From a virus, in IMG/VR virus record IMGVR_UViG_3300021400_000020, positions 1 through 64,000 of that record: a stretch of 64,000 nt of DNA, one strand, 5' to 3'. The notes below the pieces were generated by a model. That model was not told the origin of the DNA and ran no database searches. It worked only from the letters and a program-made list of their open reading frames with translations. The first letter of the stretch is position 1. Every line of letters starts with the position of its first letter. Position numbers and translations under genes: made by a program. Shown here piece after piece: positions 14,140 through 35,524 of the stretch.

Positions 14140-14150
14140 TCATCAAAAAA

Positions 14151-19237: not shown

Positions 19238-19340
19238 CGCTTTGTTGATGCTAAGTGAAATTTTTTTCAATCTTTAGATTGAAGCGAAAATGCGCTTAAA
19301 ATTTTTGTAGTGAAAATTTGCATGAATGAAAAACACTTTA

Positions 19341-19348
19341 TAACTTTG
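19341..19348 (+). promoter_or_regulatory. -7 box TAACTTTG
   Basis: TAnnTTTG match upstream of the 19508 gene. The distance (about 160 nt) is long. Confidence 0.35.
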
Positions 19349-19507: not shown

Positions 19508-20092
19508 ATGGCAACTAAAATTTTTGCAGCGCAAAAGAATAGCGCAAAGGTAGAACTTAATCAGGTATGTAAGTCCCCATTCGCAGCTTTTAACATGTTA
19601 AAAGCAGCCGCAAAGCGTGACGAATCCGTGGAAAATGCCGCTATTCGTGAAATTATTAGCACCTCTTGCATGTATGCGAACACCTCAAAACTCGACTTTT
19701 CATGTGTTCAACTGAACTCTATGGGTGACGTTTGCACGTTGAAAAAAGTATCTACTTTCATGCAAATTGAGGGTGTTTTGTACTCAAAAGAGGGTTACGA
19801 AGTCGTTTACATGTTGGGTGCATATTATGCACTTTTGCCAATCAAAACCTCCTCTCTGGGTGTTACTTTGTCGGGTTACATTAACGCTATCGTGTCCCTG
19901 TCAAATATCCGTGCATCTTATTGCGCTATTTGGGAGAAAAAAGCATCTAAGAAAAGCAGCGCAAAGAAGAGTGCAAAGAGTGTCGAAGAGGATGACGTGA
20001 ATAGTGCTGCTTTAGCACTTAACATTCAGGCTGCATTTGCTGCAAACGGAATCATTAAAAGTCTTGACGAATGTCGCAAAATGATTGCTTAA
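19508..20092 (+). CDS. Hypothetical protein (start moved from GTG 19439 to ATG 19508)
   Basis: 194 aa beginning MATKIFAAQ. Lys/Ser-rich segment near the C-terminus. Confidence 0.6.
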   Translation: MATKIFAAQKNSAKVELNQVCKSPFAAFNMLKAAAKRDESVENAAIREIISTSCMYANTSKLDFSCVQLNSMGDVCTLKKVSTFMQIEGVLYSKEGYEVVYMLGAYYALLPIKTSSLGVTLSGYINAIVSLSNIRASYCAIWEKKASKKSSAKKSAKSVEEDDVNSAALALNIQAAFAANGIIKSLDECRKMIA

Positions 20093-20642
20093 TAGCATCA
20101 TGGCGGGTGTGAATATTGGAACGTAGGGCGGTATCGTACACCGCCACACCCTCAAAAATAGGTTGGCACGACGGTGCTAATCAGGCTTTGAAAACAAAGT
20201 TTTGCATAGAAAAAAGTGGTTGCTTTGAGCGCGGATGGTTTGCGGTTGCTTACATTCAAATTTGCTCCTTTGCAAAGCTGTTGAAAAGTTGAAATAGTTC
20301 TTTTACATTTCTGGAACAATCAAACGAAAACGTAATCTTTCGGTTTTTGTAGCAAATAGGGAATCAAACGACTTTCGGGCGTGCTTTGTTAGTAGTAAGT
20401 GCTTTGCACACTGGGTTCTCTCTGAAGCTAAGGGATGCTGCTACATTGTCGAATGTTGGGCGCGGAAAACACGGAGAACATAAACGCATGAATGTTGAAA
20501 ACTTTTGGTTCATGTGTTGGTTCATATACTGAAATACATGCCGTTGTGTTGTAACACGTTGGCATCCGTGAATTGCAGGGAAAAAAGTTTATTGCTCTCT
20601 TTTTAAGTGTCCACCAGGTTCCGACCTGATGGGTGCTTCTCT
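20093..20642 (+). ncRNA. ORF-free structured region (candidate large ncRNA or leader)
   Basis: No ORF of 60 aa or more on either strand. Nested hairpins include GGCGGT-atcgtac-ACCGCC inside GGGTGT/ACACCC, CATGAA..TTCATG, ATGCC-GTT-GTGT-tgta-ACAC-GTT-GGCAT and CCACCAGGT-tccg-ACCTGATGG. Confidence 0.4.
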
Positions 20643-20727
20643 GGGAGTGTGCAGCATCATATCATTGGGATGCTGCTGGCGTGCTTCTCGAAGACATGCA
20701 AGGGGTTCGACTCCTCTCACTCCCCCA
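20643..20727 (+). ncRNA. tRNA-like cloverleaf (non-canonical)
   Basis: Acceptor GGGAGTG/CACTCCC. T-arm AGGGG-TTCGACT-CCTCT with a canonical T-loop. The D-position arm is 8 bp with a 10-nt loop. The anticodon-position arm is 5 bp with an 11-nt loop (CTTCTCGAAGA). The 3' tail is C-CAA. Confidence 0.5.
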
Positions 20728-20773
20728 AATTAGAATGAAGAATAACAAATCAAAATTATAGGAGAAAAGAAAA

Positions 20774-21246: not shown

Positions 21247-21402
21247 ATGAAAAAGGCAAGAATTATTCGATTTAACAAGAAAACAAGAGAAAATCTTTTG
21301 GTTTGTACTTTGGCTATCAGTGAGGCACTGATGACAGCTTTCTACTACAACATGGCAGAAACCGATAGCGATGTGCGCTATAAGGTTGAAACCTTGAAGT
21401 AA
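21247..21402 (+). CDS. Small hypothetical protein (below the ORF-track cutoff)
   Basis: 51 aa, MKKARIIRFNKKTRENLLVC..., translated by hand. Confidence 0.35.
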   Translation: MKKARIIRFNKKTRENLLVCTLAISEALMTAFYYNMAETDSDVRYKVETLK

Positions 21403-21443
21403 CTCTATTCTGTACTATGGAGACACGAACGCATCAAAATATA

Positions 21444-21472
21444 ATTTCAAACTTTTAAAATTTTACATCAAC
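21444..21472 (+). promoter_or_regulatory. Conserved upstream box ATTTCAAACTTTTAAAAYTTTACAWCAAC, copy 1
   Basis: Near-identical to 25422-25450. Both abut an ATG. Confidence 0.5.
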
Positions 21473-22924
21473 ATGAAAACTAACATGATTTACGCAACTT
21501 GGAATGTTGCACGTAACGAGAACAAAAACCAGAATCAGATTATCTTGGTTAATGATGGCACTAACTTCCATACCTTCGCAGAGGATGTGGATGCCGTTAT
21601 GTCGTGTGTATTTGGCACTGATTCCGAGAAGGTTGTTAATGAAAGCAAGTATCAAGATATGGCAACTTGTTCTTTCCCAAAGACACAGATTGACGTTATC
21701 ACTCTGCTGCTTCGCAACAACATGGCACCTATCATTCGCATGTTGCCAGAGGATGCAGAGGTTGCTTCTGAACCTACTGCCAAGGTAATAGCTATGCCTA
21801 CGAACAGCAAGCCAGAGGCAACCAAGGAAACCAAGCCAGAGGCAACCAAGGAAACCAAGCCAGAGGCAACCAAGGAAACCAAGCCAGAGCCTACCAAGAC
21901 AATCAAGTCAGAGCCTACCAAGACAACCAAGCCAGAGCCAGTTACATCTACTCCATCCATTGAGCCTATTGCAAACGAGCCAACACTTAGCAAAGCACAA
22001 CTCGCAACCCTTGAGAAGTATTGGATGAAAGGTTATGACCTTGCTAATGCATACGTGGCTTCATTGAGTTCGACTGAAATCAACGAGAAGTTGCTTGACC
22101 TGAAGAACAAACTTGATTCATCTTGGGCAAATGCTCAGAAAGTGAAGAAGAATCTTGCAAGTTTCTTTATCGCCATGATGGGGTATAGAACAGTGCAAGG
22201 TCAAATTGCTTGCATTGATAAATACCTGAAGGGTTGTGGTACTGAAGAACCTGCCGTGACCGATGAACCTACTACCACTGAAGAACCTACTACCACTGAA
22301 GAACCTACTACCACTGAAGAACCTACTACCACCGAAGAACCTACTGTGACCGAAACTCCTGCCGTGGCTGAAACTCCTGCCGTGGCTGAAACTCCTGCCG
22401 TGGCTGAAACTCCTGCCGTTGTTGTTAGTGTTGATGCAGACACTGACACGCCAACACCAACAATCTGGCTTGGGTACTCTCCTAAGAGCTTCGTATTCAC
22501 TGGTAGCATCAAGGATGATGCAGACATCCTTACAAACTTAGGCGGTCGTTGGAACAGCTTTGGGTTCAAGGAAATTGACGGCAAGCCACAAGGATGGACG
22601 TTTCAATCCGCTAAGCAAGACGTGCTTGTTGCTACTCTCAAACGTCTTTACCCTTCCGTTGTCTTGATGGACTGCCAGCGCAGTAGCGCAGTCGATGAAC
22701 CTCAGAAACCTCTCTGCCGACTTCAGATGATTGACTACTCTGATAGATGTGTTGCCTTGACAGGTGAGGGCATCGAGTTCTACGAGAAACAGATTATGAA
22801 TGAGCTTCACGGAGCACGTTGCAATCGTTTGGTGATTGGTACAGACAAACCTCGTCTTGGCTTCTTTATCAGCAAAAGACGTATGAGTGATGTAGAAAAG
22901 TTTGTGAACACTGTTAATGCGTAA
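21473..22924 (+). CDS. Hypothetical modular protein with PT/E-rich tandem linkers and two C-terminal repeat modules
   Basis: 483 aa. KPEATKET x3 plus variants (about 21809-21953). EEPTTT x4 and ETPAVA x4 (about 22244-22427). C-terminal modules at about 22463-22657 and 22721-22912. Confidence 0.75.
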   Translation: MKTNMIYATWNVARNENKNQNQIILVNDGTNFHTFAEDVDAVMSCVFGTDSEKVVNESKYQDMATCSFPKTQIDVITLLLRNNMAPIIRMLPEDAEVASEPTAKVIAMPTNSKPEATKETKPEATKETKPEATKETKPEPTKTIKSEPTKTTKPEPVTSTPSIEPIANEPTLSKAQLATLEKYWMKGYDLANAYVASLSSTEINEKLLDLKNKLDSSWANAQKVKKNLASFFIAMMGYRTVQGQIACIDKYLKGCGTEEPAVTDEPTTTEEPTTTEEPTTTEEPTTTEEPTVTETPAVAETPAVAETPAVAETPAVVVSVDADTDTPTPTIWLGYSPKSFVFTGSIKDDADILTNLGGRWNSFGFKEIDGKPQGWTFQSAKQDVLVATLKRLYPSVVLMDCQRSSAVDEPQKPLCRLQMIDYSDRCVALTGEGIEFYEKQIMNELHGARCNRLVIGTDKPRLGFFISKRRMSDVEKFVNTVNA

Positions 22925-22930
22925 TCTCCT

Positions 22931-23539
22931 ATGAATGATTTGAATGATTTCGAAAAGGCTGTCAAGTCATTGCTTGACAAGCGTGCTGAAACTGATAGTT
23001 TGTTCCGCACCACTTACGCAAAGCCTAACAAGAATATCAAAGAATGTTGCCAATACATCTTCGGCACTGTTTATGAACGCGCCAAGAATCAGCATTGCAG
23101 TTATGGCGGACGTTCAGGTTGCAGTGCAGCCGTGAGTGATGAAGAAGTGGTTGGCATGGCAGTCCACTACTACGATGAAGACGACATCAAGATACCAGGT
23201 GTAAGTGCTTCTGTCTCTACAAGTGTTGCAGGTGCTCCTCCAACCAAAAGCACGGGTGCAAAGAGGAAAGCAAAATCCGCTTCCTCTGTTGCACCTGCTC
23301 CAATGGCTGTTGCAGCATCATCGGATGGCGTGTCTGCCATTAGTGCTGAACCAACCACCAAGACTCTTTCTTTCAACATGGACGGTGACAAGGTTGCCGT
23401 CCGTGGAACTCTGACATCAAGCCAGAGAGGTGAGCTTTTGAAGGCTGGTGCTAAATATGATTTGCAGAAGAGATGCTTCTATGTGTCTCTCGACCAGATT
23501 CAGTTAGTGATGAATATCGTAAATGGCGACGTGAAATGA
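22931..23539 (+). CDS. PcfK-like protein (AcrIIA9-family-like N-terminus)
   Basis: 202 aa. FEKAVKSLLDKRAETDSLFRTTYAKPNKNIKECCQYI...VSDEEVVGMAVHYYDEDDIK matches my recollection of the PcfK/AcrIIA9 family signature. Followed by a PcfJ-like gene, as in pCF10. Confidence 0.5.
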   Translation: MNDLNDFEKAVKSLLDKRAETDSLFRTTYAKPNKNIKECCQYIFGTVYERAKNQHCSYGGRSGCSAAVSDEEVVGMAVHYYDEDDIKIPGVSASVSTSVAGAPPTKSTGAKRKAKSASSVAPAPMAVAASSDGVSAISAEPTTKTLSFNMDGDKVAVRGTLTSSQRGELLKAGAKYDLQKRCFYVSLDQIQLVMNIVNGDVK

Positions 23540-25176
23540 AAGCATACACAAAAACACAAGCAGAAGTGAAGTCACTCCATGAGCGGCTTCACTCTCTTTC
23601 GGATGAAGAGAATCAAGAGTTGATTGATAAGGCTTACCCGATTTCAATCTTCTATCGCAGCAAGATTACAAATTGGTGTACTTGTTGTGGTAAATCGTGG
23701 ATTTCGTCGAATCTTGAAACCGTCTGCCCTTACTGCAAGAGTAATGGGCAGGTGGAAGTGTCACGAAAGCAGAAGTACGATGATAAGAGGATGGCACTTG
23801 TTGTTGACACGTTGGACGGATGGCAGGTACTCAGGTTCTTTGAGGTGTCCCGATGGTCGCGTAAAGACTCCGTTCATAATTCAAGCACCACGTTTGAAGT
23901 GGTGCAAGCCTGGTATCATCCAAGCGGCAAACGAGAAATCTTGCGTCGTCCTCGTCGCCCATTCTCTTACATGTGGGATGCTTTCACTTCTCTTCCAATG
24001 TGCTTCTCTCAGGAACGAGAACAGCAGCAGTTCGATTATAGTTCTCTCGGTTACAGTGTCGTGATTGAGAAGAATGTATTGAAAGAGTTTGAAGGATTTG
24101 CATTTGACGAAGACGATTGCTTTCAAGATATAAGTCGCGCTTCACTCTATTACATTCTGTCACGCCATCCTTTAGCCAACTCATTGATTAGGGACGGGCA
24201 TCTGGATTTGGTGAAGAAAGTTCTGAAAAGGGATTTAATCACACCTAAAATGATGGTTGCCTTGAATGTAGCCATTCGCCATAAGTTCAACTTCAAAAAG
24301 AATGATGTTTCCTCGTGGATGGACATGGTGAATGCTATGATATACTTAGGCGACGATATTTTGGATCCAAAAAATGTCGCACCTAAAAGAACTTTCATGG
24401 TGATGCACAACACAGCCATTAGTCGAATGGCTGCAGAACAGAAAAGACGTCGTAGATGGGCAGTGAAAAAGAAACTATTGAAAACGAAAATTCCAATGGT
24501 TGAAACGCTTATTAAGAGTAACGATGTTTGGGTTGAAAGACTCGCAAAACTGAGCGACTCACACCGACTCACAGCAGATTACCTGAACGCTATCAAGATT
24601 GCCCGCCGAACTTCTTACGATTTCGGCACTTTGCAAGACTTCTCTAAATGGTCAGATTACATCGCTAATCTGATAAGACTTGGGAAAGATATTCACAACG
24701 CATATTATGTTGCTCCTAAGTTGTTAGACGATGCATATCGCAAGTCTGTTAATCAGATTGAAAAGCACCGAATTCAGGAATTGATAGAACGAAATAAGCG
24801 TGAAGCACAAACCAAAAACGACCAATATGTGAAAAGCAAGGGTGCGTACTTCAACATCGACATTAACGATGGCGTTGTATTCTGCCATGTTCTTCAGAGT
24901 GTTGCAGAATTTGTTGAAGAGGGCGCGACGATGCACCACTGCGTTTATCAGATGGGCTATTACAATAAACCTAACTCGCTCATCCTCTCCGCACGAGTTG
25001 ACGGTAAGCGGATGGAGACAGTCGAAGTCAATCTGAGAGACTTCACCATTTCGCAAAGCCGAGCTGTTTGCAATGGCGTGAGCAAGTATCACAATGAAAT
25101 CGTTGAACTTGTGAATAGTCAGATGCACAAGATTCGTGAAGTGAGGGAAGCGAGCTTTAAAAAGAAAGCAGCATGA
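23536..25176 (+). CDS. PcfJ-like protein
   Basis: 546 aa from the ATG at 23536 (ATGA overlap with the upstream stop). CxxC pairs (CTCCG, CPYCK) near the N-terminus. C-terminal EGATMHHCVYQMGYY...LILSARVDGKRMETVEV. Confidence 0.5.
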   Translation: MKAYTKTQAEVKSLHERLHSLSDEENQELIDKAYPISIFYRSKITNWCTCCGKSWISSNLETVCPYCKSNGQVEVSRKQKYDDKRMALVVDTLDGWQVLRFFEVSRWSRKDSVHNSSTTFEVVQAWYHPSGKREILRRPRRPFSYMWDAFTSLPMCFSQEREQQQFDYSSLGYSVVIEKNVLKEFEGFAFDEDDCFQDISRASLYYILSRHPLANSLIRDGHLDLVKKVLKRDLITPKMMVALNVAIRHKFNFKKNDVSSWMDMVNAMIYLGDDILDPKNVAPKRTFMVMHNTAISRMAAEQKRRRRWAVKKKLLKTKIPMVETLIKSNDVWVERLAKLSDSHRLTADYLNAIKIARRTSYDFGTLQDFSKWSDYIANLIRLGKDIHNAYYVAPKLLDDAYRKSVNQIEKHRIQELIERNKREAQTKNDQYVKSKGAYFNIDINDGVVFCHVLQSVAEFVEEGATMHHCVYQMGYYNKPNSLILSARVDGKRMETVEVNLRDFTISQSRAVCNGVSKYHNEIVELVNSQMHKIREVREASFKKKAA

Positions 25177-25436
25177 AACTACAGAAACGGGATGCGAACG
25201 GAGTCCTTGTGTTCGACTCGTGGGACGAGGGCGTTCACTATTTCCGTTCTTCGCCATCATCCATTCTCAACCGCTACATTTGGCAAATGCTGAATTGGGG
25301 CTACACCGAAGCTGAAGAGGATGAGATTTGGAAACAGGCAAGAATAGCCGATACACTACCAGGGCGTATCGCTGATATGAAAGAGTTGGTCCGCCGACTC
25401 AGAACTACTGGAAACATTTTTATTTCAAACTTTTAA
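25173..25436 (+). CDS. Hypothetical protein
   Basis: 87 aa. ATGA overlap with the upstream gene. Confidence 0.55.
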   Translation: MKLQKRDANGVLVFDSWDEGVHYFRSSPSSILNRYIWQMLNWGYTEAEEDEIWKQARIADTLPGRIADMKELVRRLRTTGNIFISNF

Positions 25437-25450
25437 AACTTTACAACAAC
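25422..25450 (+). promoter_or_regulatory. Conserved upstream box, copy 2
   Basis: atttcaaacttttaaaactttacaacaac followed directly by the ardC-like ATG. Confidence 0.5.
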
Positions 25451-26662
25451 ATGAGAAAGAACGTAAAAATGTCCGACGCACAAATCGGACGCTATTCAGA
25501 GATGATTACTTCCGCATTGACAAGCATGGAGGAAACCGAGTGGCAGAAGCCTTGGAACACAACGATGGTAATGCCTAAGAACTTCTATCGCAAGAAGGAG
25601 TTCGGCATCATCAACAAGTTCATGCTGATGCTGATGGGAGCGAACAAGTACAAGGTTCAGCTTTACATGACACTCAACCAAATCAAGAACATCAACGGTA
25701 CATTCAAGTATGACGGACTCTCCATATCGAAAGGCGAACGTGCATACCCAGTTTGGAGCACGACGGTCTTCTATCGCAACGAAGACGGCGGCATCATCTA
25801 CCCTAAGCAGTATGACGAATTGCCAGAAGAAGAGAAGGAGGAGTTCACGAAATGTTTCGCAGACAAGATTTACCCTGAGTGGAACATCGAACAGACGAAC
25901 TTTGCAGAAATCTACCCTGAAGACTACGCGAAATTGCTTGAGCAGATGGAGCAGGAGAAAGACGACATCGCTTGCACCAATGAAGTGCTCGACAAGATGA
26001 TTGAGGGCGGCGAGTGGATTTGCCCAATCGGTTTTGGTGGCGGTTCTGCTTGCTTCTACCCTAACCAAAAACGTATTTCTCTCCCTTTACGTAGCACATT
26101 CATTAGCAATGCCGCTTTTTACGGGACAGCACTTCACGAGATGGCTCACTCCACTAAGATTGCAATCCGCCGCGACTTCGGCAAGAAGTCCTGGGGCGAC
26201 GAGGGATATGCGATTGAGGAACTTGTAGCGGAAATGACCTCTGCCATCCTCTGTATGCATGTTGGCATCGAAAAAACCATCGACGAACAACATAAGGCAT
26301 ACGTTACAAGTTGGCGTAAGGAAATCAAGAAAGAAAAGAACAAGTTCATTCCGCTTGTTATCAGCCACATCTTTGCAGCGGCTCGTCTGATGCTCCGCCA
26401 CTATGCAGAGGTGGAGAGTACGGGACATATTCAGCTCTCCGACCACGAGAAAGCAAAGGTGGTGACAGAAGCAGCTACACAGTTGCTGATGGACATCGAG
26501 GACGACCAACTCAAAATCACGGGAACTCCTTCCCCTGTTCAGGTTGAACAACTCGAAAAGGTGGGCGCCACCTACGACATCGACAATGGTGTGTATCGAG
26601 CACCGCTTGAGTTAATCACAGATATTTGCACGATTATAACAAACGTCAATGAGGCTGCATAA
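25451..26662 (+). CDS. ardC: ArdC-like antirestriction protein (ssDNA-binding N-domain + zincin HExxH)
   Basis: 403 aa. N-terminal WQKPW region, LHEMAHST (HExxH), and YAIEELVAEMTSAIL typical of ArdC. Confidence 0.75.
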   Translation: MRKNVKMSDAQIGRYSEMITSALTSMEETEWQKPWNTTMVMPKNFYRKKEFGIINKFMLMLMGANKYKVQLYMTLNQIKNINGTFKYDGLSISKGERAYPVWSTTVFYRNEDGGIIYPKQYDELPEEEKEEFTKCFADKIYPEWNIEQTNFAEIYPEDYAKLLEQMEQEKDDIACTNEVLDKMIEGGEWICPIGFGGGSACFYPNQKRISLPLRSTFISNAAFYGTALHEMAHSTKIAIRRDFGKKSWGDEGYAIEELVAEMTSAILCMHVGIEKTIDEQHKAYVTSWRKEIKKEKNKFIPLVISHIFAAARLMLRHYAEVESTGHIQLSDHEKAKVVTEAATQLLMDIEDDQLKITGTPSPVQVEQLEKVGATYDIDNGVYRAPLELITDICTIITNVNEAA

Positions 26663-26717
26663 CAATCAAATGGTAACGGGGAGACTAACCACCTCCCCAT
26701 CAATCAAAATCATCATC

Positions 26718-27113
26718 ATGGAAAGAAATTTAGAAGAAATCAAGCGTTGCAAGGCAATCACAGACATCACCCTCGCACAAGTCAAGGGTTCTTGTTCCTC
26801 GATGTTCGTGTTCTACTCTTGGGGTGTAAGTAAGTTGCTCTACTCCTTCTACAATGAGATGCCTACTCTTCAGATGAAAGTGTCTGGTGCAATCCACAAA
26901 GGATGGGTGCTTGTCTCGCTGAATGAGGGAAAAGACCTCTATGAGATTCGTCTTCTGAACAACAGAAAAGAATTGAAGAAGGAGGTGATAGACATTTATG
27001 CCGACCAACTCGGAAGCATCATCGACTCTCTGGTTGAGCGCCCTGAAGGATGCTCAGATGAATACTACCAGAAACTGATTGACATCGACAACAAAAAGAA
27101 ACATCTCGTATGA
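26718..27113 (+). CDS. Hypothetical protein (start chosen at ATG 26718)
   Basis: 131 aa. Confidence 0.55.
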   Translation: MERNLEEIKRCKAITDITLAQVKGSCSSMFVFYSWGVSKLLYSFYNEMPTLQMKVSGAIHKGWVLVSLNEGKDLYEIRLLNNRKELKKEVIDIYADQLGSIIDSLVERPEGCSDEYYQKLIDIDNKKKHLV

Positions 27114-27499
27114 ATCTCGACGAAGAAATGCTCCTCTGGGAGAAACGAAACACAGACGACTTCGGCTGTATGATGAACAAGTTGCAAGAAACCCTGAAAG
27201 ATTCCCTTTTGGAAGAGGAAAACGATTTGGGCTTCCGTGAAACTTGGCTTTCATCCATCACCACTCGCTATGTAATAAACGTATATGACTCTCCGCAAGC
27301 ATACTTGTGGGACACATTCTATAACCTCGTGAACTACGATTACATTGCCATCAACGACGATTGCACTATCAACGTAAGTAATTCCAACCATCCCGACGCG
27401 GCTCAACTCATTGCCGACTACCTTGCAGCGCATCCACTCTACCAGATGCCTGACTATTTGAGAGACAAATTGAATCAGTTACTAAAAGTTTTTAGATAA
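27110..27499 (+). CDS. Hypothetical acidic protein
   Basis: 129 aa. ATGA overlap with the upstream gene. Confidence 0.6.
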   Translation: MNLDEEMLLWEKRNTDDFGCMMNKLQETLKDSLLEEENDLGFRETWLSSITTRYVINVYDSPQAYLWDTFYNLVNYDYIAINDDCTINVSNSNHPDAAQLIADYLAAHPLYQMPDYLRDKLNQLLKVFR

Positions 27500-28056
27500 T
27501 GGCAAACTACGCAACAACAACTTACAAGATAGAGGGACCTTCGCCAATCCTTCAGAACCTTCACAACATGCTTGAATCCTTACGCAATGGCGACATCAAA
27601 CCATCGCAGGACTACCCAGAAGACTGGGAGGGCACAGTCATTCACCTTCTCGGAGGCTCTATCAAGGGTTACAGCATGAGAGGCACCATCACTGACAGCA
27701 ATCTCAATGATGGTGTACTCACCATCTATGCCGAAGAAGCCTGGTCAGTCACCGACTTCCGCCACGCTCTCACGGACGTCTATCCCGACCTCACAGTCTA
27801 TTTCCGCACCGAGGAATGTGGATGTGATGTATTTATCTCCAACGATGTTGACGGAAAATATTTCTCCGAGGACTGTCTTTTAGATGCTTGCTTCGATGGG
27901 GACGGCTACTCAGAGTATTTTGCTACCTACGAGGACGCCTGTCAGTATCTGCTGGAGCGGACGGGATTCTCCGACCCCGACAAGTATAACGAGTTGAATC
28001 CTGATGGCGACTCATTCGCTTATATTCACACATTCGAATTTTCAACAGAATTTTAA
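27499..28056 (+). CDS. DUF1281/Api92-like (ferredoxin-like) protein, tentative
   Basis: 185 aa. MANYATTTYKIEG start and ...YAEEAWSVTDF...YPDLTVYFRTEECG pattern. Confidence 0.35.
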   Translation: MANYATTTYKIEGPSPILQNLHNMLESLRNGDIKPSQDYPEDWEGTVIHLLGGSIKGYSMRGTITDSNLNDGVLTIYAEEAWSVTDFRHALTDVYPDLTVYFRTEECGCDVFISNDVDGKYFSEDCLLDACFDGDGYSEYFATYEDACQYLLERTGFSDPDKYNELNPDGDSFAYIHTFEFSTEF

Positions 28057-28057
28057 C

Positions 28058-28591
28058 ATGGAAAAGAACAATTCACTAAGAACACACCCTTTCACCTATG
28101 GGGAATTCTTTAACATGCTGATGGAGCAGGCAAAATCACAGAACGCTCCTTGCATCAACGACCTCGATTATGCAGATGCAAATTTCCTTCTTCGGGATCG
28201 CGACTTCACGTTTGCAGATGCAGAGATTCGCTCAGTCACCAGCTTCGGAGGTTCCGAGGGCATCTACACCGACTTCTTCCTCTTGTGCAATGATGGGCGT
28301 CGGCTCGACTTCGCCACGGCAAAGACACTCCTTGAAGACGATGAGACATTCGTCGCCATGCACACCTTTGCGGGAATGGTGACGCTGATAGGAAACCGTT
28401 ACATCCGTCAGCATGTACAGGATTTCGTCTGGACCGACTACTCCTATGGGTTTATCGAAGAGGACGGCAGTTTGACCTGCTATTGCTATCAAGGTACACT
28501 CGAAGACTACAAGCAGTTCTTGCAGTTGTGCAAGGAACAAGGCAAGAAACCTTATCTCATGGAAAACACAACGAAAAAGGTAATTCAGTAA
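28058..28591 (+). CDS. Hypothetical protein (start moved to ATG 28058)
   Basis: 177 aa. Confidence 0.6.
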   Translation: MEKNNSLRTHPFTYGEFFNMLMEQAKSQNAPCINDLDYADANFLLRDRDFTFADAEIRSVTSFGGSEGIYTDFFLLCNDGRRLDFATAKTLLEDDETFVAMHTFAGMVTLIGNRYIRQHVQDFVWTDYSYGFIEEDGSLTCYCYQGTLEDYKQFLQLCKEQGKKPYLMENTTKKVIQ

Positions 28592-28598
28592 AACAGTA

Positions 28599-28630
28599 GG
28601 GTAGGGTGCTCCCATCGCTGCACCCTGCCC
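28599..28630 (+). terminator. GC-rich hairpin after the 28591 stop
   Basis: GGGTAGGGTGC-N10-GCACCCTGCCC (one G-U pair). No T run. Confidence 0.4.
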
Positions 28631-28669
28631 ATCCCCTTTCAAACTTCAAACTTAAATACATCATCAACA

Positions 28670-31600
28670 ATGAAACGATTAGACAAAAACATCGAGGCAC
28701 TGAAGATTGCTATCGAAATTGCAAACTCACCACGCACATTGAATCAGAAAGAAGTAGAAGCACTCCAGGCTTATAGCGGATTTGGAGGTATCGACATTGC
28801 ACACCTGAACAACGAGGATGCAGAGACATTGCAGAACGTCGTTGAGACTATCTCCCAAATCACCAACGAACCAGCCGACACACTGATGCGCTCACTGAAG
28901 ACATCAACACTGACAGCCTTCTACACTCCTACCGTCATACCGCAAGCAGTCAGCATCGCCATGCAGCTTGCAGGACTCCAGCCGAAGCGCATCCTCGAAC
29001 CGTCTTGTGGCACAGGCAACTTCCTCCAGCCTTTCGTACAGTCCTACCCACAAGCAGCAACCATCGCTTACGAGATTGACGCAGTGACAGCTCTTGTCAC
29101 AAAGGCGCTCTATCCTAACACAGACCTACGCATTGCAGGATTCCAGACCATATCATCTTCCGACTTGAAGACATTCGACCTCACGGCAAGCAACATCCCA
29201 TTCGCTGACGTGAAAGTGTTTGACCCATCGTTCACTTCACCCGTCGAATTGGACGCTTGCCGCTCACTGCATAGCTATTTCGTGATGAAAGGTGTCTCCA
29301 CACTTCGCAACGGTGGAGTCCTTGCTTTCCTCACCACACAAAGCTATCTCAACTCCCTTACTCACATCGAACAAGTGCGCCACATCTTCCGCAATGCAAG
29401 ACTCGTGTCGGCAACACGATTGCCCAACAACCTCTTCGCTGATACTGAAGTCGGAACCGACCTCCTGATTCTTCAGAAGGAACTCGGCAAGGAAGAACTC
29501 ACCGCAAACGAATGGTTGCTGACTTCTTCAGCCGACAATGCGGATGGGGTTGTTCGCAACGCTTACTTCGAGTGTTTCCCTGAGCATTACATCTGCACAA
29601 GCAAGGAAGTGAAGCGAGGACTGTACGGAAAGCTCCAACTCGTCACCAAGCATGAGGGTGGTGTGAACGGCATCGCTGCCGACCTCTTTCAGCAGGTAAG
29701 CCGCGACTTCGCCACGAACATCAACGTTGCCCTCTTCAACAACAACTTCGCCAAACTGACGGCATCCACTTCGAAGACAACGACCCAGAAGCCTACCACG
29801 GAAAAGACTCGCCACGAGGACGAGCGCCTGTCATTACTTCAAGAAATTCTGAAGGCATACGACAAGCTCTATGCCTACGAGATGGAACAACAGCAGGAGA
29901 ACACCGAAATGAGAGACGAACTGAATCGTCTCTACGACCAGTTTGTTGCTCGATACGGACAACTCAACAAACCCAGTAATCGTTCCTTCATACGCTCCAA
30001 GAATCTATCTGACCTTCTTGCTTTGGAACTACAAGAAACAGCGGGCATCTTCGTAAAGGCTGACATCCTCCATCATCCAGTGGCATTCGACATCAACGAG
30101 AAGTCATCATTCGACAATGCACATGAAGCCCTCTCTGCATCGCTGAACAAGTTTGGCAAAGTGAATCTTCGGTATATGCAGGATGTGAGCAACCTGAGCG
30201 AGAAGGAAATCTTCTCGGAACTCGCTGGCGAGATTTTCTTCAACCCTCTCAAAAACGAATGGGAAATCAAGGAAATGTTTATCAGCGGCGACGTTATTAG
30301 TAAGGCTGACCGCATCGAGACCATCATGCCAAACGTCGCAAAGGAGAACGAACGATTTGCCAAGGAGTCGTTGGAAGCACTCCGCGCTGCCACTCCCACG
30401 CCCATCCTCTTCGCCGACCTCGACTTCAACTTGGGCGAACGCTGGATGTCTCCAGAAGTGTATGAGAATTTTGCAATGGACTTCTTCAATGTTCACAGCG
30501 ATAGGGAGAAGGCTATCTCGGTGGTGTTCTCTCCCGACCTCGACCAGTACGAAGTGAACCTCAATATATGGGGAAATGAGAGAATATATACAGAGTATGC
30601 CGTGGTAGGCGAGAATGTCACATACGACGGTATCGAACTCTTCACTCATGCCCTCCACAACACCATTCCTGCTATCAAGAAATGGAATGGAGAATACGAC
30701 GCAAACGGAAAGAAAATCATGGTTCGTGACGAAGAGCGTATCCAGTTCGCCACATCGAAGATAGAAGAAATTCGAGATGGTTTCTGCCAATGGCTCTTCA
30801 GGCAGCCTGTGGATTTCCAACTCCAACTACAAGACACCTACAACCGACGCTTCAATGCTTGTGTGCGACCTGCTTACAACGGTTCGCATCAGACTTTTCC
30901 AGACCTCGACCTCGACGCACTCGGTGAGAAGTACGGCATCCGACAAATCTATCAGTCCCAAAAGGATTGCATTTGGATGCTCAAACTGAATCAAGGTGGT
31001 ATATGCGACCATGAGGTAGGAACAGGCAAAACGCTGATTATGTGCATGACGGCACACGAGATGCACCGACTCGGCATCGCTCACAAACCTATCATCATCG
31101 CACTCAAGGCAAACGTCGCTGCCATTGCAGAGACTTACCAAACTGCATACCCTAACGCTCGCATCCTCTACGCATCTGAACAGGACTACAGCTCTGCCAA
31201 CAGAGCAGACTTCTTCCGCCGTGCCAAAAACAACGACTATGACTGCATCATCATGTCACACGAGCAGTTCGGCAAGATTCCTCAGTCGCTCGAAGTACAG
31301 CGCGACATCATCGAGGATGAACTCCGACAGCTCGACGATGCTCTCTACCACTTCCTCGAAACAGGTGGCAGCGATTCGTTCAAAATTCGCAAGGGACTTG
31401 AGAAGCGTCGTGAGAACCTGCACGCCAAACTGACAAAGCTGGAGTACGACATCAACCATCGCAAGGATGATGTTATAGACTTCGCCATGATGGGCATCGA
31501 CCACATCTTCGTGGACGAAAGCCATCAGTTCAAGAACCTCATGTTCTCCACTCGACATGAGCGTGTGGCTGGACTCGGAAACCCTACGGGAAGTCAACGA

Positions 31601-33478
31601 GCATTCAACTTGCTCATTGCCATCCGCACCATTCAGCGCAAGAAGCAAAGAGACCTCTGCGCCACCTTCCTCAGCGGCACGACCATCACCAACTCGCTCA
31701 CCGAACTCTTCTGTCTCTTCAAGTATATGCGTCCTCGTGCTCTCGCTCGTCAGAACATCTTCTGCTTCGACGCATGGGCTGCCATCTTCACTCGCAAGAG
31801 TACGGAATATGAATTCTCCATCACCAACGAGATTCAGAGTAAGGAACGTTTCCGCTACTTCATCAAGGTTCCCGAGTTGGCTGCCTTCTACAACGAAATC
31901 ACGGACTACCGCACGGCAGAGGATGTAGGCATCGACCGACCTGTCAAGAAAGAAATCCTTCACAACATCGCACCGACCGAAGACCAGAAGGACTTCATCG
32001 AACGATTGATGAAATTCGCTAAGGGTGGCAATTCCTCACTCATCTATCGTCCATTCCTCACCGACAAGCAACAAAAGGCAAGGATGCTCATCGCTACCGA
32101 TGCAGCACGCAAGATGGCACTCGACATGCGCTTGATTGAGCCAACCATCTTCGAGGATGATCCGAACAACAAGGCATCACACTGCGCTCAGATGATAGCA
32201 CACTATTACCACAAGTACGAGGAACAGAAAGGAACTCAGTTCGTGTTTTCCGACCTCTCCACTTGGCACTCCAACGACGAGTGGAATATCTACAACGAAA
32301 TCCGTCACAAACTCGAAGTGGAGTATGGCATCCCACGCTCCGAAATCAAGTTCATCCAGGAATGCAAGGGTGAAGCGGCAAGAACGAAAGTCATTCAGCA
32401 GATGAACGAGGGAAAGGTTCGCGTACTCTTCGGCTCCACGTCCATGCTCGGCACGGGTGTCAACGCTCAGCAACGGGCAGTGGCAGTACACCACCTCGAC
32501 ACACCTTGGCGACCATCAGACCTCGAACAGCGAAACGGACGTGCTGTCCGCAAGGGAAACCTCGTGGCAAAACAGTTCGCTAACAATCAGGTGGACGTCA
32601 TCATCTACGCCGTGGAACGCTCACTCGACTCCTACAAATTTAACCTCCTCCACCTCAAGCAGACCTTCATCCACCAGCTGAAGAGTGGCACACTCGCCAC
32701 ACGAACCATCGACGAGGGCGCAATGGACGAGAAATCGGGAATGAACTTCTCGGAATACATGGCAATCCTCTCTGGCAACACCGACCTGTTGGACCGCGCA
32801 AAGCTCGAACGCAAGGTGGCTGCACTCATGGCGGAGCGCAAGACCTACCAGCGCACCATGCACGAGGCTGCCGTGGAGCAAATCACCAAGCAGGAGAAAC
32901 TCAACACCAACGAAGAGCGCATAGCATCCATGCAGCGAGACCTCGACATCGTGAATGCCATCCCTCCATGCAAGGAAGGTGAAACCATCCTCCGCATCGA
33001 CGGATGTAAGGAGACCGACGAGAAGTCAATGGGTGAGCGCATCATCAAGTACGTTGAGAAAGCCAACACCAACGGAGCCTACATCCCAATCGGTTCCTAC
33101 GGGCAGTTCCCTGTCGTAGTCAAGTCGGAAACCGTCACCAACTCAACAGGAGACACACACACCGTCACTCGTATGTTTGTTCGTGGCGAAACAACTTACT
33201 ACTGCACCAACAACGGAAACGTGCCTATATCTCCTATCTATGCAGCACGTCAGCCACAGCAGTCACTCACCAAGATTCCGGCACTCATTGCCAAACTGAC
33301 TGAGGAAAACGTTCAGCTGGCTCGATCCATCGAAGAACTCACTCCAATCATCAACAAGCCTTGGCATAAGGAAGACGAACTGAAGAAGCTGCGCAATGAA
33401 CTTGCACAACTCGACAAGAAAATCGCAAGCTCCCTCAATGCACAAGAGCGTGAGATGTCCACGGAGGAAGAGGACTAA
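28670..33478 (+). CDS. Fused N6-adenine DNA methyltransferase / SNF2-DEAD-type helicase (polyvalent anti-restriction-type protein)
   Basis: 1602 aa. AFYTP, EPSCGTGNF (SAM motif I) and SNIPF (motif IV variant). Helicase motifs DHEVGTGKT, VDESHQFKN, SGTTITNS, GTGVNAQ and LEQRNGRAVRKGN. Confidence 0.85.
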   Translation: MKRLDKNIEALKIAIEIANSPRTLNQKEVEALQAYSGFGGIDIAHLNNEDAETLQNVVETISQITNEPADTLMRSLKTSTLTAFYTPTVIPQAVSIAMQLAGLQPKRILEPSCGTGNFLQPFVQSYPQAATIAYEIDAVTALVTKALYPNTDLRIAGFQTISSSDLKTFDLTASNIPFADVKVFDPSFTSPVELDACRSLHSYFVMKGVSTLRNGGVLAFLTTQSYLNSLTHIEQVRHIFRNARLVSATRLPNNLFADTEVGTDLLILQKELGKEELTANEWLLTSSADNADGVVRNAYFECFPEHYICTSKEVKRGLYGKLQLVTKHEGGVNGIAADLFQQVSRDFATNINVALFNNNFAKLTASTSKTTTQKPTTEKTRHEDERLSLLQEILKAYDKLYAYEMEQQQENTEMRDELNRLYDQFVARYGQLNKPSNRSFIRSKNLSDLLALELQETAGIFVKADILHHPVAFDINEKSSFDNAHEALSASLNKFGKVNLRYMQDVSNLSEKEIFSELAGEIFFNPLKNEWEIKEMFISGDVISKADRIETIMPNVAKENERFAKESLEALRAATPTPILFADLDFNLGERWMSPEVYENFAMDFFNVHSDREKAISVVFSPDLDQYEVNLNIWGNERIYTEYAVVGENVTYDGIELFTHALHNTIPAIKKWNGEYDANGKKIMVRDEERIQFATSKIEEIRDGFCQWLFRQPVDFQLQLQDTYNRRFNACVRPAYNGSHQTFPDLDLDALGEKYGIRQIYQSQKDCIWMLKLNQGGICDHEVGTGKTLIMCMTAHEMHRLGIAHKPIIIALKANVAAIAETYQTAYPNARILYASEQDYSSANRADFFRRAKNNDYDCIIMSHEQFGKIPQSLEVQRDIIEDELRQLDDALYHFLETGGSDSFKIRKGLEKRRENLHAKLTKLEYDINHRKDDVIDFAMMGIDHIFVDESHQFKNLMFSTRHERVAGLGNPTGSQRAFNLLIAIRTIQRKKQRDLCATFLSGTTITNSLTELFCLFKYMRPRALARQNIFCFDAWAAIFTRKSTEYEFSITNEIQSKERFRYFIKVPELAAFYNEITDYRTAEDVGIDRPVKKEILHNIAPTEDQKDFIERLMKFAKGGNSSLIYRPFLTDKQQKARMLIATDAARKMALDMRLIEPTIFEDDPNNKASHCAQMIAHYYHKYEEQKGTQFVFSDLSTWHSNDEWNIYNEIRHKLEVEYGIPRSEIKFIQECKGEAARTKVIQQMNEGKVRVLFGSTSMLGTGVNAQQRAVAVHHLDTPWRPSDLEQRNGRAVRKGNLVAKQFANNQVDVIIYAVERSLDSYKFNLLHLKQTFIHQLKSGTLATRTIDEGAMDEKSGMNFSEYMAILSGNTDLLDRAKLERKVAALMAERKTYQRTMHEAAVEQITKQEKLNTNEERIASMQRDLDIVNAIPPCKEGETILRIDGCKETDEKSMGERIIKYVEKANTNGAYIPIGSYGQFPVVVKSETVTNSTGDTHTVTRMFVRGETTYYCTNNGNVPISPIYAARQPQQSLTKIPALIAKLTEENVQLARSIEELTPIINKPWHKEDELKKLRNELAQLDKKIASSLNAQEREMSTEEED

Positions 33479-33583: not shown

Positions 33584-34036
33584 ATGAGTTGTTTTATTAT
33601 TGACAAGATTGAGTATGTGAAGGCAGCTGGACTTCTCTACGGCGTCACAGAACAAGACGAAGACATGCTTCACTCGCGTTTCCTGGCAAACATCCGAGAG
33701 AACTTCATGGATGCCTACAAGAAGAACGTGCAAAGCGTTAACGAACGCTACAACGAAAACACCAAACCCGAAGAAGAGGAATACGATGAGATGTTTGAAG
33801 TCTATCGGGTGTTGGGACATGAGATTGGTACCAACACGAACGCCACCATGAACATGGAACAGTTCCGATGGAGCCTGTATCACTTCTTTGGCTCGGTCCT
33901 CTACCAAATCGAGAACCAACAACTGCACATGGAAGTGTCCGCATACTTCTACCAGGTAATGACAAACCTCTTCTATAAAAAGATTCACCAATCTGGAACT
34001 TGGTGGGGTGAAGTCTCCGTTGATGCTAATGCCTAA
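33584..34036 (+). CDS. Hypothetical protein
   Basis: 150 aa. Confidence 0.65.
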   Translation: MSCFIIDKIEYVKAAGLLYGVTEQDEDMLHSRFLANIRENFMDAYKKNVQSVNERYNENTKPEEEEYDEMFEVYRVLGHEIGTNTNATMNMEQFRWSLYHFFGSVLYQIENQQLHMEVSAYFYQVMTNLFYKKIHQSGTWWGEVSVDANA

Positions 34037-34082
34037 TATATAATAAGGTGTGATAAGTGAAAAGCAAAAATTCAAAATCGCA

Positions 34083-34433
34083 ATGGGAACAAAAAGAAAA
34101 CCAAACTATAGTGCAAAGATTGCCAACATGAACCGCGCTATGATTAACGAAATGTGGAACATCATAGGACAGCGGGCTAAGACCGATGACCGTTATAAAG
34201 CATCGAATCAATTTTGCGAGCGCACTTTCGAGAGCGAACATGAAGTTTGCGAGGTGTCGTTTGGCGGGCATGACTATGGTGTGACAGGCATTCGCATTGA
34301 AGAACATTGGAAATGGGGTAGAAGTGTTAGTATCACAGCGCATGATGGTTATGATTACTCAGGTCTTGATACTGAAAGTTTGTGCGTTTTGCTCTCTGCT
34401 TTGCGCCGCCAGCGTTGCAGAAAGGTAGCTTGA
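34083..34433 (+). CDS. Hypothetical protein (start moved to ATG 34083)
   Basis: 116 aa. Confidence 0.5.
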   Translation: MGTKRKPNYSAKIANMNRAMINEMWNIIGQRAKTDDRYKASNQFCERTFESEHEVCEVSFGGHDYGVTGIRIEEHWKWGRSVSITAHDGYDYSGLDTESLCVLLSALRRQRCRKVA

Positions 34434-34503
34434 CAATTCCGTTACTCCTTAACTCCGTAGATATAAAATCAAAATCAGTTGTAATATAATAAGGTATAAG
34501 ACT

Positions 34504-34683
34504 ATGGCAAAGAAAACAACGAAAGCAGAACTCAGACACGCCATCTTTAAATTCAAAGATGCGATCCGTGAAGAACTCGTCAACAACTATGCAAAGTACG
34601 GAGAGAACCCTCCGAACATCGAACTTTGGAAGAAGATGCACGACATCTGGAACGAAATGAACGAGTATTGCAAATCCATCTAA
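34504..34683 (+). CDS. Small hypothetical protein (below the ORF-track cutoff)
   Basis: 59 aa, MAKKTTKAELRHAIFKFKDAIREEL..., translated by hand. Preceded by atataataaggt, as is the 34050 ORF. Confidence 0.45.
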   Translation: MAKKTTKAELRHAIFKFKDAIREELVNNYAKYGENPPNIELWKKMHDIWNEMNEYCKSI

Positions 34684-34740
34684 TCTCAAAACCTGCTGCA
34701 CAACATATTTTGTGCGGCAGGTTAATCCAAGAAACCCGTG

Positions 34741-34748
34741 TAACTTTG
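34741..34748 (+). promoter_or_regulatory. -7 box TAACTTTG
   Basis: 56 nt upstream of ATG 34804. Confidence 0.45.
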
Positions 34749-34803
34749 CATGGGATAGTCACTAACTAAAACAGCCCTCGACAACACGGTTAAGTCATGA
34801 ATC

Positions 34804-35490
34804 ATGAAAAAAGTATTCGATTCCATTAACCTTGACATTCCTGAAGTGGAATCCTTTATCGAAGAACAAGGTCTTTCGTTCGTATGTAATGACAAGATGC
34901 AGGTGGAAGCATCAGAAGAGGATTTTGAAACCCTCTTGGAACGTTTCCCTTTCATCGACTATGTGGAAGCAGAAGAAAAATCCTTGCAAGATATTGCAGA
35001 CGAGAATGACTTGTTAGTCGTTGAAACAACCAGCTCGCGCAATGGTTACCCATCGAATCTACGTAAGGCAATCACAGGATTCAGCGGCTTTGAAGAAGCA
35101 AAACGTATTGCAAGTGAGAACGGACTGACACTTGTCTGGCTTGATTTGCGTGAAGGTTGGAAACTCTGGCATCGTGGCGACACCGCCACTGAACCGATGA
35201 CCATCACCAGCAACGACTTCGGAGACGACTACAACTTTGAGGACAACAGCGAAGAAATCATGCAGTGTGCTTACGATGTGATAGCAGACTTAGCTAACCA
35301 AGGTGCATCGTTTGACGACATTCGTTCCTACATGGCGAAGGTGGAAAAGATAACAGATGCTATCAAGAAGGCAGACTACCGCCAAGTGGTTGTAACCTAT
35401 AAAGGTGAATACTACGACACCATCGAGGAGCACCCTATCTATTTCCACTTCGATTCCAAGTACACACAACTTGCCGCAATAGAATCATAG
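34804..35490 (+). CDS. Hypothetical acidic protein
   Basis: 228 aa. Confidence 0.7.
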   Translation: MKKVFDSINLDIPEVESFIEEQGLSFVCNDKMQVEASEEDFETLLERFPFIDYVEAEEKSLQDIADENDLLVVETTSSRNGYPSNLRKAITGFSGFEEAKRIASENGLTLVWLDLREGWKLWHRGDTATEPMTITSNDFGDDYNFEDNSEEIMQCAYDVIADLANQGASFDDIRSYMAKVEKITDAIKKADYRQVVVTYKGEYYDTIEEHPIYFHFDSKYTQLAAIES

Positions 35491-35496
35491 CGAATC

Positions 35497-35524
35497 ATAT
35501 TAACCCCATAAACCCCATTACCCC
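35497..35524 (+). repeat. CCCAT-type tract running into ATG 35525
   Basis: attaaccccataaaccccattaccccATG. Confidence 0.85.

Follow-up and report, generated by a model that had tools for sequence, protein, structure and literature searches.

The ArdC-N domain, the MPTase zincin and the DarB-type methylase-helicase are early-acting effectors in phages as well as in conjugative elements (Iyer et al. 2017, PMC5512222), a source in which PcfK and PcfJ find no mention; the PcfK domain is carried by AcrIIA9 (PMC6739104). That phages and plasmids share anti-restriction tools has already been described for polyvalent-protein domains, for the Dar system of phage P1 and for ArdC. Here we describe a gene block in a 64,000-nt window (the whole stretch of DNA analysed) of a ~97-kb, circularly assembling genome of sheep rumen origin. 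We favour, with a probability of roughly 0.6, the reading that this block is the establishment/anti-restriction module of a ~97-kb putative phage-plasmid, assembled from genes circulating among Bacteroidales conjugative elements. The block is a real but expected example of such sharing; its new details are a lineage-specific 59-aa module, a structured non-coding element and a downstream variable slot.

Results

We regard the element as a putative phage-plasmid of rumen Prevotellaceae because genes for a terminase large subunit (TerL), a tape-measure protein and an S49 head protease (the last just beyond the window edge) co-occur with those for a RepB-like initiator and ParA (Table 1); packaging/structural genes and plasmid replication/partition genes, the gene combination of phage-plasmids, are thus found on one replicon. 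Of the terminase, portal and tape-measure genes to which the original prediction had linked the block, the first and last are present, while no portal was identified. The plasmid replicon (RepB-like initiator plus ParA) had been missed, as had the published account of ArdC-N, MPTase and DarB-type domains common to phages and conjugative elements (PMC5512222). No integrase family was found among the larger window ORFs scanned, nor in the precomputed Pfam annotation of the loci, and Pfam data for the larger window ORFs, together with the precomputed annotation, gave no relaxase, T4SS or coupling-protein family over about 82 of the 97 kb, scaffold_390 being covered on either side of a ~13-kb stretch at ~50.5-63.3 kb.

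Table 1. Positions in the window of the block, its flanking features and the phage and plasmid genes
Feature	Position	Strand	Remarks
ParA	699-1484	+	AAA_31 E 4e-44; plasmid module 699..3930
RepB-like initiator	2443-3930	+	33-37% identity to RepB initiators of Segatella plasmids
Terminase large subunit (TerL)	4301..6127	-	29.6% identity over 91% to annotated terminases
Candidate promoter	19317..19348	+	Bacteroidota-type consensus TTTG-N-TAnnTTTG; consensus match only
g194	19508..20092	+	basic protein; first ORF past candidate promoter; 194 aa in relatives' gene calls
Conserved ORF-free element	20093..20730	+	~570-640 nt; candidate large structured RNA, just upstream of block
g83	20774-21025	+	small ORF; different ORF in its place in L014
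g51	21247-21402	+	small ORF; kept in L014 (86%, dN/dS 0.14)
33-nt near-identical stretch, copy 1	21441..21476	+	extends into g483 start codon
g483	21473..22924	+	483 aa; first gene of block
PcfK-like protein	22931..23539	+	PF14058 E 1.4e-19; phrog_7445
59-aa C-terminal module (PcfK-like)	23360-23536	+	common to PcfK-like and ArdC-like proteins
PcfJ-like protein	23536..25176	+	546 aa; PF14284 E 1.9e-32; 4-nt overlap with PcfK
g87	25173..25436	+	small conserved ORF; 88.5% identity in L014, dN/dS 0.11
33-nt near-identical stretch, copy 2	25419-25454		precedes ArdC-like gene
ArdC-like protein	25451..26662	+	403 aa; ArdC-N, MPTase zincin, then 59-aa C-terminal module
59-aa C-terminal module (ArdC-like)	26477-26653	+	common to PcfK-like and ArdC-like proteins
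g131	26718-27113	+	small protein
g129	27110-27499	+	small acidic protein, pI 4.3
g185	27499-28056	+	small acidic protein, pI 4.05
g177	28058-28591	+	small acidic protein, pI 4.7
DarB-like N6-adenine methyltransferase-SF2 (SNF2-like) helicase	28670..33478	+	1602 aa; N6_Mtase, SNF2, Helicase_C domains
Downstream small ORFs (g150, g116, g59, g228, g139)	33584..35944	+	
g150	downstream of DarB-like	+	acidic, pI 4.8
g116	34083-34433	+	downstream small ORF
g228	34804-35490	+	variable slot; acidic, pI 4.3
g139	downstream of DarB-like	+	predicted membrane or lipoprotein-like
Tape-measure protein	37680..44957	-	2425 aa; PhageMin_Tail E 5.6e-10

The block consists, as predicted, of consecutive genes on one strand, and it is syntenic in three close relatives: L014, which keeps the full order, and L001 and L081, which keep it in the parts that each locus spans. 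Of four IMG/VR contigs of 100-144 kb (L015-L018), retrieved via the ArdC-like protein, three (L016-L018) hold PcfK, PcfJ, ArdC and DarB in a looser arrangement, and L015 shows ArdC and DarB only; the gene directly before DarB in L016 encodes a protein that combines DnaJ with the polyvalent-protein domain LPD29. All block genes are under purifying selection, with dN/dS 0.04-0.30 at dS 0.27-1.3, and divergence is greatest in g483 and the small proteins. The kinship with conjugative elements that had been proposed is real: homologues of the parts are found on Bacteroidales plasmids beside tra, relaxase or zincin genes, or beside each other.

Upstream of the block, the promoter match at 19317..19348 may mark where the transcription unit containing it begins. 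The consensus occurs 12 times in the window, where 2.2 would be expected, and after 19348 the next on the + strand is at 36213, with none between; a terminator-like hairpin with a T-run (19189-19242, also a consensus match only) lies just 5' of the candidate promoter. The g194 protein has 87% identity to its L014 counterpart (dN/dS 0.20) and no Pfam or PHROG match. The ORF-free element that follows is 89-95% identical in nucleotides across three relatives and has an MFE z-score of -3.6; RNAalifold gave 170 pairs, of which 7 are compensatory, where shuffles had 2.7+-1.2 and slid controls 0-2. At the 3' end (20643-20724) the element is tRNA-like, with a tRNA-Sec score of 21 bits only, and it reached the gathering score of no Rfam family and gave no match with ARAGORN. 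The 33-nt stretch, with 2 matches in place of 0 expected, is found too before the g483 homologue in L014.

The g483 gene does encode a modular repeat protein: three in-frame tandem arrays (24 nt x5.4, 18 nt x4.5 and 18 nt x3.8) encode P/T/E-rich linkers between four conserved globular segments, and the relatives' versions are 483, 461 and 470 aa long. The protein matches phrog_15511 (E 6e-9); its N-terminal segment has a weak likeness to MutS_I (PF01624; E 0.059, 14 bits, below the 20.6 cut-off), a PDB profile search gave no MutS and the AF2 model was uninformative. Both of the 97,040-bp contig's ends fall within this gene, the one hint of extrachromosomal maintenance.

In the two genes that follow, the assignments as PcfK/AcrIIA9-like and PcfJ-like are upheld by Pfam gathering scores. 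The PcfK domain (PF14058) scores 71 bits against a cut-off of 27 and covers profile positions 4-75 of 139, and is followed by a low-complexity linker and then the 59-aa C-terminal module; the PF14284 match of the PcfJ-like protein covers positions 2-147 of 147, and two CxxC pairs lie close to its N-terminus. The PcfJ ORF spans 23473-25176, and its start in the relatives' gene calls is at 23536. Both proteins match PHROG phage families, and an overlapping PcfK-PcfJ pair adjoins traJ-traO on the B. fragilis plasmid p214_V8GG_COL1.

The ArdC-like protein has the ssDNA-binding and zincin domains expected of it, both passing their gathering scores: ArdC-N (ArdcN, PF08401) with E 5.6e-14 and 52.8 bits against a cut-off of 22.6, and MPTase-PolyVal (PF18818) with E 1.3e-26 and an HEMAH motif at residue 229. 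It also matches the solved ArdC structures 6SNA/6I89 (E 3e-14) and phrog_7245, 'anti-restriction protein' (E 3.6e-38), and its dN/dS is 0.036. The predicted methyltransferase-helicase is equally clear, its three domains all being found, with E 1.6e-265 to phrog_10089 ('DarB-like antirestriction'). Its motifs are ILEPSCGTGNF, NIPF (a variant methyltransferase motif IV), GTGKT, DESH and QRNGR. It is 95.8% identical to its L014 counterpart and has relatives in 139 phage and 2020 plasmid records, the closest (44-51% identity) being on Bacteroides/Prevotella plasmids, where they adjoin a zincin/ArdC-like gene.

The eight small ORFs put forward in the original prediction as anti-defence candidates are genuine genes, with dN/dS of 0.08-0.30 in comparison with a relative, and three of the starts given there, 26718, 28058 and 34083, are the starts in the relatives' gene calls. 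Several of the small proteins were expected to be acidic, and the computed pI is 4.05-4.8 for g129, g185, g177, g150 and g228. The g131, g129, g185 and g177 proteins are conserved (dN/dS 0.09-0.24), yet at 70-79% identity they are the most divergent of the block. On Bacteroidales plasmids, g131 and g185 have homologues in the vicinity of traM/traN, of MobV or relaxase genes and of zincin genes; homologues of g177 are in L016 and L017, and g87 has no family match (Pfam and PHROG included). The label 'DUF1281-like' for g185 was not confirmed, as neither PF06924 nor any other Pfam family matched at E<=10, and its two plasmid homologues had no match at E<=0.1. A low-confidence AF2 model of g185 (pLDDT 53.8) has a beta-alpha-beta-beta-alpha-beta order in residues 6-104, for which Foldseek returned generic ferredoxin-like matches only (E>=0.036, TM about 0.3). 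In L001 and L014 other ORFs occupy the g228 slot, and none of these alternative cargo ORFs that was tested has a Pfam match.

Discussion

We propose that the block, probably transcribed as one long + strand unit, acts in establishment of the element and against restriction. Early or middle expression is likely because the candidate promoter (~19.3 kb) is downstream of DnaB/DnaD-like replication genes. The activities and targets that we infer come from homology: the ArdC-N domain would bind exposed DNA, and type I restriction would be neutralised through the intact zincin site; methylation or remodelling of the element's own DNA by the DarB-like enzyme would shield it; and accessory roles or further inhibition could fall to PcfJ, g483 and the acidic, fast-diverging small proteins. 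On the one ground of the Pfam family common to it and AcrIIA9, the PcfK-like protein may have anti-CRISPR activity and inhibit Cas9 as AcrIIA9 does (PMC6739104).

Several points count against this explanation: ArdC has been characterised with ssDNA that arrives in conjugation, while the DNA injected by a tailed phage is dsDNA; the PcfK match spans just the first half of its profile; we know of no function for PcfJ; and motif IV of the methyltransferase is the variant NIPF. The block proteins might instead be packaged in the virion and injected with the DNA, in the style of P1 Dar and the polyvalent proteins, acting pre-transcription, with the shared C-terminal module as a targeting/assembly signal; P1 DarB and many polyvalent proteins with the same domains are delivered with DNA (PMC5512222), and the DarB-like match to phrog_10089 is a strong one. 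In this lineage the module itself occurs in exactly two block proteins, the PcfK-like and the ArdC-like one, and a search of 1.84 billion representatives gave no other protein with it; it is under strong purifying selection, with 19-21 nt changes to 1-2 aa changes. However, the DarB-like protein itself lacks it, as do the IMG/VR relatives' ArdC and PcfK homologues; the block adjoins replication genes, away from the head genes; and scanning the block ORFs against Pfam and PHROG gave none of the Dar accessory families (DarA, Hdf, DdrA, DdrB, Ulx), divergent analogues being possible. We consider delivery with the virion unlikely.

A little more doubtful still is a role of the block in DNA metabolism or in establishing the plasmid (handling of ssDNA, restart of replication, regulatory self-methylation) and not in counter-defence. 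The block's place directly 3' of the same-strand genes for DnaB and a DnaD-like loader would fit such a role, as would the NAD-dependent DNA ligase within the L016 block, the toprim gene that adjoins the DarB-like gene on Bacteroides plasmids and the lack of an established function for PcfJ and PcfK in Bacteroidota; but anti-restriction is experimentally established for relatives of ArdC and DarB (as cited in PMC5512222), and small proteins that are acidic, fast-diverging and swapped among relatives have the pattern of conflict genes, not of replication genes. That the phage and plasmid genes were brought together by chimeric assembly is highly improbable: the data are all metagenomic and the reference contig breaks within the g483 repeats, but the same junctions occur in independent assemblies from different samples (ERZ27256871, ERZ28612966, ERZ28653742, JGI Ga0326511, NCBI AUXO01, Logan SRR5322755) and a similar arrangement is kept in the diverged IMG/VR contigs. 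Such a mixture is less surprising because the element has a plasmid replicon and phage-plasmids swap genes with plasmids (PMC12282955).

The establishment/anti-restriction reading remains the one that we prefer. As a long shot, we mention a joint reading in which the 59-aa module would serve for docking and bring anti-defence proteins from separate genes together in one complex, equivalent to a polyvalent protein without the covalent links; this complex would perhaps be loaded into the virion and co-delivered with DNA, and the upstream structured element would perhaps be a new regulatory RNA of the module.

To our knowledge, experimental tests of counter-defence genes of Bacteroidota are rare. 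The block offers a conserved Bacteroidota case in which anti-restriction genes pass between conjugative plasmids and a phage-plasmid. In it, g129, g131, g185, g177, g150 and g228, with their replacements in relatives, are candidate new inhibitors of Bacteroidales/Prevotella restriction and CRISPR systems; such inhibitors could help to make these bacteria genetically tractable.

Set beside the polyvalent proteins (PMC5512222), the block has a common repertoire of ArdC-N, MPTase, adenine methylase, SNF2-type helicase and possibly MutS-I, with LPD29 in a relative; here, in contrast, the set is split over separate adjacent genes, of which the ArdC-like and DarB-like each hold 2-3 domains, and it is not beside head genes. 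P1 DarB and the proteins of PHROG 10089 likewise fuse an N6-methyltransferase to an SF2 helicase with motifs intact, but the protein here stands by itself at 1602 aa and is not part of a >4000-aa polyvalent protein. The plasmid leading-region islands (Samuel et al. 2024, PMC11541004) also line up anti-restriction genes with uncharacterised small ORFs on one strand, behind a structured non-coding element; here no relaxase marks a leading region in the about 82 of 97 kb scanned, and the element is not a recognised ssDNA promoter. The overlapping PcfK-PcfJ pair followed by small ORFs is an arrangement of Bacteroidales conjugative plasmids/transposons too, although PcfJ identity is only about 29-32%, tra genes are not nearby, and the PcfK match covers half of the profile, in a protein with a linker and C-terminal module added. 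Finally, ArdC of the IncW plasmids pSa and R388 (6I89/6SNA) has the same order of ArdC-N and then zincin peptidase with HExxH, whereas the ArdC-like protein described here is in a phage-plasmid with no T4SS seen, would meet injected dsDNA and not conjugative ssDNA, and adds the 59-aa C-terminal module.

Results

The original prediction of a same-strand gene run was borne out: ORFs (named here by protein length, so that g483 is the 483-aa product of the first gene) are densely packed across the block, and Pfam and PHROGs agree on the proposed PcfK, PcfJ and ArdC-like proteins (see table). The ArdC-like protein, labelled ‘anti-restriction protein’ in PHROGs (E 3.6e-38), matches the solved ArdC structures 6SNA/6I89 (E 3e-14) and retains the HEMAH zinc site. 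The expected methyltransferase-helicase carries the PHROGs label ‘DarB-like antirestriction’ (E 1.6e-265), with methylase motif I kept, motif IV as NIPF, and helicase motifs GTGKT, DESH and QRNGR intact. Several small block products are acidic (pI 4.05-4.8), as had been claimed; the ‘DUF1281-like’ assignment of g185 is without sequence support, a weak model giving a generic ferredoxin-like hint only.

Features of the block and its surroundings (window positions unless a relative is named)
Feature	Position	Strand	Remarks
AACCCCATYAA clusters	1637-1656, 14149-14177, 18285-18322, 35502-35521, 37201-37220, 57681-57691, others	+	9-nt unit
Intergenic region before block	18700-19440		regulatory-looking; poly-T tracts
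Perfect 14-nt palindrome	18882-18915		AAAATTGCACACTA/TAGTGTGCAATTTT; in intergenic region
Terminator-like hairpin	19189-19242		24-nt arms, T-run
Promoter consensus	19317-19348		follows hairpin
ORF-free element	20093-20730	+	640 nt; between g194 and g83
tRNA-like 3' end of element	20643-20724	+	GGTTCGACTCC T-loop, acceptor-like stem, CCA
Block	21473-33478	+	
33-nt stretch, two copies	21441-21476, 25419-25454	+	ATTTCAAACTTTTAAAAyTTTACAwCAACATGA
g483	21473-22924	+	first gene
g483 repeat arrays	21808-22419	+	
PcfK	22931-23539	+	Pfam E 1.4e-19
PcfJ	directly after PcfK	+	Pfam E 1.9e-32
59-aa module, two copies	23360-23536, 26477-26653	+	PcfK-like and ArdC-like C-termini
ArdC-like protein	25451-26662	+	Pfam ArdcN + MPTase-PolyVal
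g185	27499-28056	+	
DarB-like protein	28670-33478	+	1602 aa; Pfam N6_Mtase, SNF2, Helicase_C
Variable slot downstream of DarB-like gene	34700-36300; relatives L001 19375-21142, L014 16586-16987 and 17733-19120	+	
C-5 cytosine DNA methyltransferase	55441-57303	+	E 2e-31; own consensus promoter
Giant ORF just before window start	locus L011, 1-3947	-	2167 aa (gene call)

We consider that the block would most likely be a counter-restriction and establishment operon, expressed soon after entry, because it follows replication genes on the same strand, because a terminator-like hairpin and then a consensus promoter precede it, and because the + strand holds no further consensus promoter until 36.2 kb (the Bacteroidota-type consensus being enriched overall, with 12 sites vs 2.2 expected). 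The activities of its products are inferred from ArdC, P1 DarB and AcrIIA9 (PMC5512222, PMC6739104). A live alternative, given the DarB-like protein, is that these proteins are co-injected from the virion, like the P1 Dar proteins; a purely replicative role, for a block that does lie behind replication genes, is less likely.

The operon reading concerns an arrangement that is conserved. In the close relative L014, a contig from a different rumen sample, the complete gene order is retained, with ~95% identity for the ArdC-like and DarB-like proteins and only 70-79% for g483, PcfK, g131, g129, g185 and g177. A chimeric assembly, which would explain the mix of phage and plasmid genes, is excluded as highly improbable, since the arrangement recurs in independent samples. 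Purifying selection acts on all genes (dN/dS 0.04-0.30, with dS 0.27-1.3), and this includes, wherever a counterpart exists, the eight small ORFs singled out at the outset as candidate anti-defence genes, which are thus real genes. We regard g228 and g83 as variable slots, because other ORFs take their place in relatives; the g228 slot, where the replacements are unrelated ORFs, is the one listed in the table downstream of DarB. The replacement ORFs tested from relatives had no Pfam match, and NCBIfam contributed nothing. Through matches to the ArdC-like protein (35-50% identity), four IMG/VR contigs (100-144 kb) were retrieved. Three (L016-L018) hold a looser block of PcfK, PcfJ, ArdC, other genes and then DarB, with a g177-like gene in addition in L016 and L017, and with an NAD-dependent ligase and a DnaJ+LPD29 protein among the intervening genes of L016. 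The fourth, L015, has ArdC and DarB only.

The first gene is modular and repeat-bearing, as foreseen: three in-frame tandem arrays in g483 encode P/T/E-rich linkers between conserved segments. Array copy number differs among relatives (483, 461 and 470 aa). Low-complexity matches swamped the whole-protein homologue search, the sole match to the N-domain was a fragment of g483 itself, and AF2 run on the single sequence gave no usable model (pLDDT 36). The protein may or may not carry a MutS-I domain; MutS was not among the matches of a PDB profile search. For g185, just two close homologues were found among 5.8 billion proteins searched, a PDB sequence match was absent, and a fold search with a weak model gave generic matches only.

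The PcfK-like protein ends in 59 residues that are homologous to residues 343-401 of the ArdC-like protein (24% identity; with the 812 ORFs of the window as search space, phmmer gave E ~1e-3 in both directions). When 1.84 billion representative proteins were searched exhaustively with a profile, this module was recovered in these two proteins only, and homologues of ArdC and PcfK in the IMG/VR relatives lack it. Against L014 it shows 19-21 nucleotide changes and just 1-2 amino-acid changes, indicating strong constraint (purifying selection), and we suggest a common docking or assembly function. DUF5710 was rejected as its identity (weak match only, E 0.19); hmmsearch and hhalign ruled out its presence in two C-terminal segments of g483.

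Directly upstream of the block lies an ORF-free element that is a candidate structured RNA of ~570-640 nt. It is 89-95% identical in relatives, whereas synonymous sites of the adjacent genes differ at 30-60%, and it folds better than shuffles (MFE z -3.6). Seven compensatory pairs were counted, vs 2.7+-1.2 in shuffles and 0-2 in slid controls, a thin result from four close sequences only, scored on a structure derived from those same sequences. It matched no Rfam family; nhmmer placed it in close relatives only, two pattern scans of viral contigs returned nothing related, and a metagenome scan added one further close relative carrying it. Its tRNA-like 3' end scored 21 bits against Rfam tRNA-Sec (E 0.17, below gathering), ARAGORN found no tRNA there, and L014 has unrelated sequence in its place.

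Two other motifs lie near start codons. The 33-nt near-identical stretch runs into those of g483 and the ArdC-like gene (2 matches vs 0 expected) and is also present in L014. The 9-nt unit AACCCCATYAA forms short tandem clusters exclusively on the + strand (19 matches vs 2.25 expected), most of which stop 2-12 nt ahead of a + strand start codon.

The same proteins are encoded on ENA scaffold_390 (ERZ28612966; 97,040 bp, sheep rumen). Both ends of this contig lie in g483, the C-terminal portion at its start and the N-terminal portion at its end, so that the genome appears to close into a circle, the assembly having broken in the g483 repeats. The predicted linkage to terminase and tape-measure genes holds (TerL with 29.6% identity over 91% to annotated terminases; a 2425-aa tape-measure protein), and an S49 head protease lies just beyond the window; the portal also claimed was sought among the genes and none was identified. 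DnaB and a DnaD-like loader are present in the window or flanks, together with ParA and a RepB-like initiator that shares 33-37% identity with Segatella plasmid Rep proteins; integrase, relaxase and T4SS families were absent from the about 82 of 97 kb searched. From this gene content, the enriched Bacteroidota-type promoters and the best homologues, which are from Bacteroidales, we propose a putative phage-plasmid of rumen Prevotellaceae. The giant ORF in the head-gene cluster, which adjoins the S49 protease and had no informative Pfam match, might encode a virion-associated or ejection protein. The C-5 cytosine methyltransferase is predicted to be a second self-methylation function.

Discussion

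The closest DarB-like homologues (44-51% identity) are on plasmids of Bacteroides, Phocaeicola and Prevotella; on pBFS01_1 the gene adjoins a zincin/ArdC-like gene, DUF4116, DUF1896 and a toprim gene. PcfJ has homologues on 39 plasmids from Bacteroidota (36 from Bacteroidales), and p214_V8GG_COL1 carries a PcfK-PcfJ pair with overlapping genes, plus small ORFs, beside traJ-traO. Bacteroidales plasmids also encode homologues of g131 and g185, in the neighbourhood of traM/traN, ParB, MobV or relaxase genes, and zincin genes. The gene set is thus common to this element and conjugative elements, as the original prediction held; its description as a ‘leading region’ was not established, here or on those plasmids.

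At the nucleotide level (Megablast) the block had zero matches to phages and plasmids. At the protein level all four named families (PcfK, PcfJ, ArdC and DarB) match PHROG phage families, and DarB-like genes are present in 139 phage records. Work from 2017 (PMC5512222) described the ArdC-N, MPTase and DarB-type methylase-helicase domains as early effectors common to phages and conjugative elements, with a MutS-I domain within the same polyvalent proteins, and gene trade between phage-plasmids and plasmids is known (PMC12282955). The overall gene sharing is therefore not new, and what we add to these known systems is modest: a conserved example from putative Prevotellaceae phage-plasmids, candidate inhibitors, a lineage-specific module and a candidate RNA.
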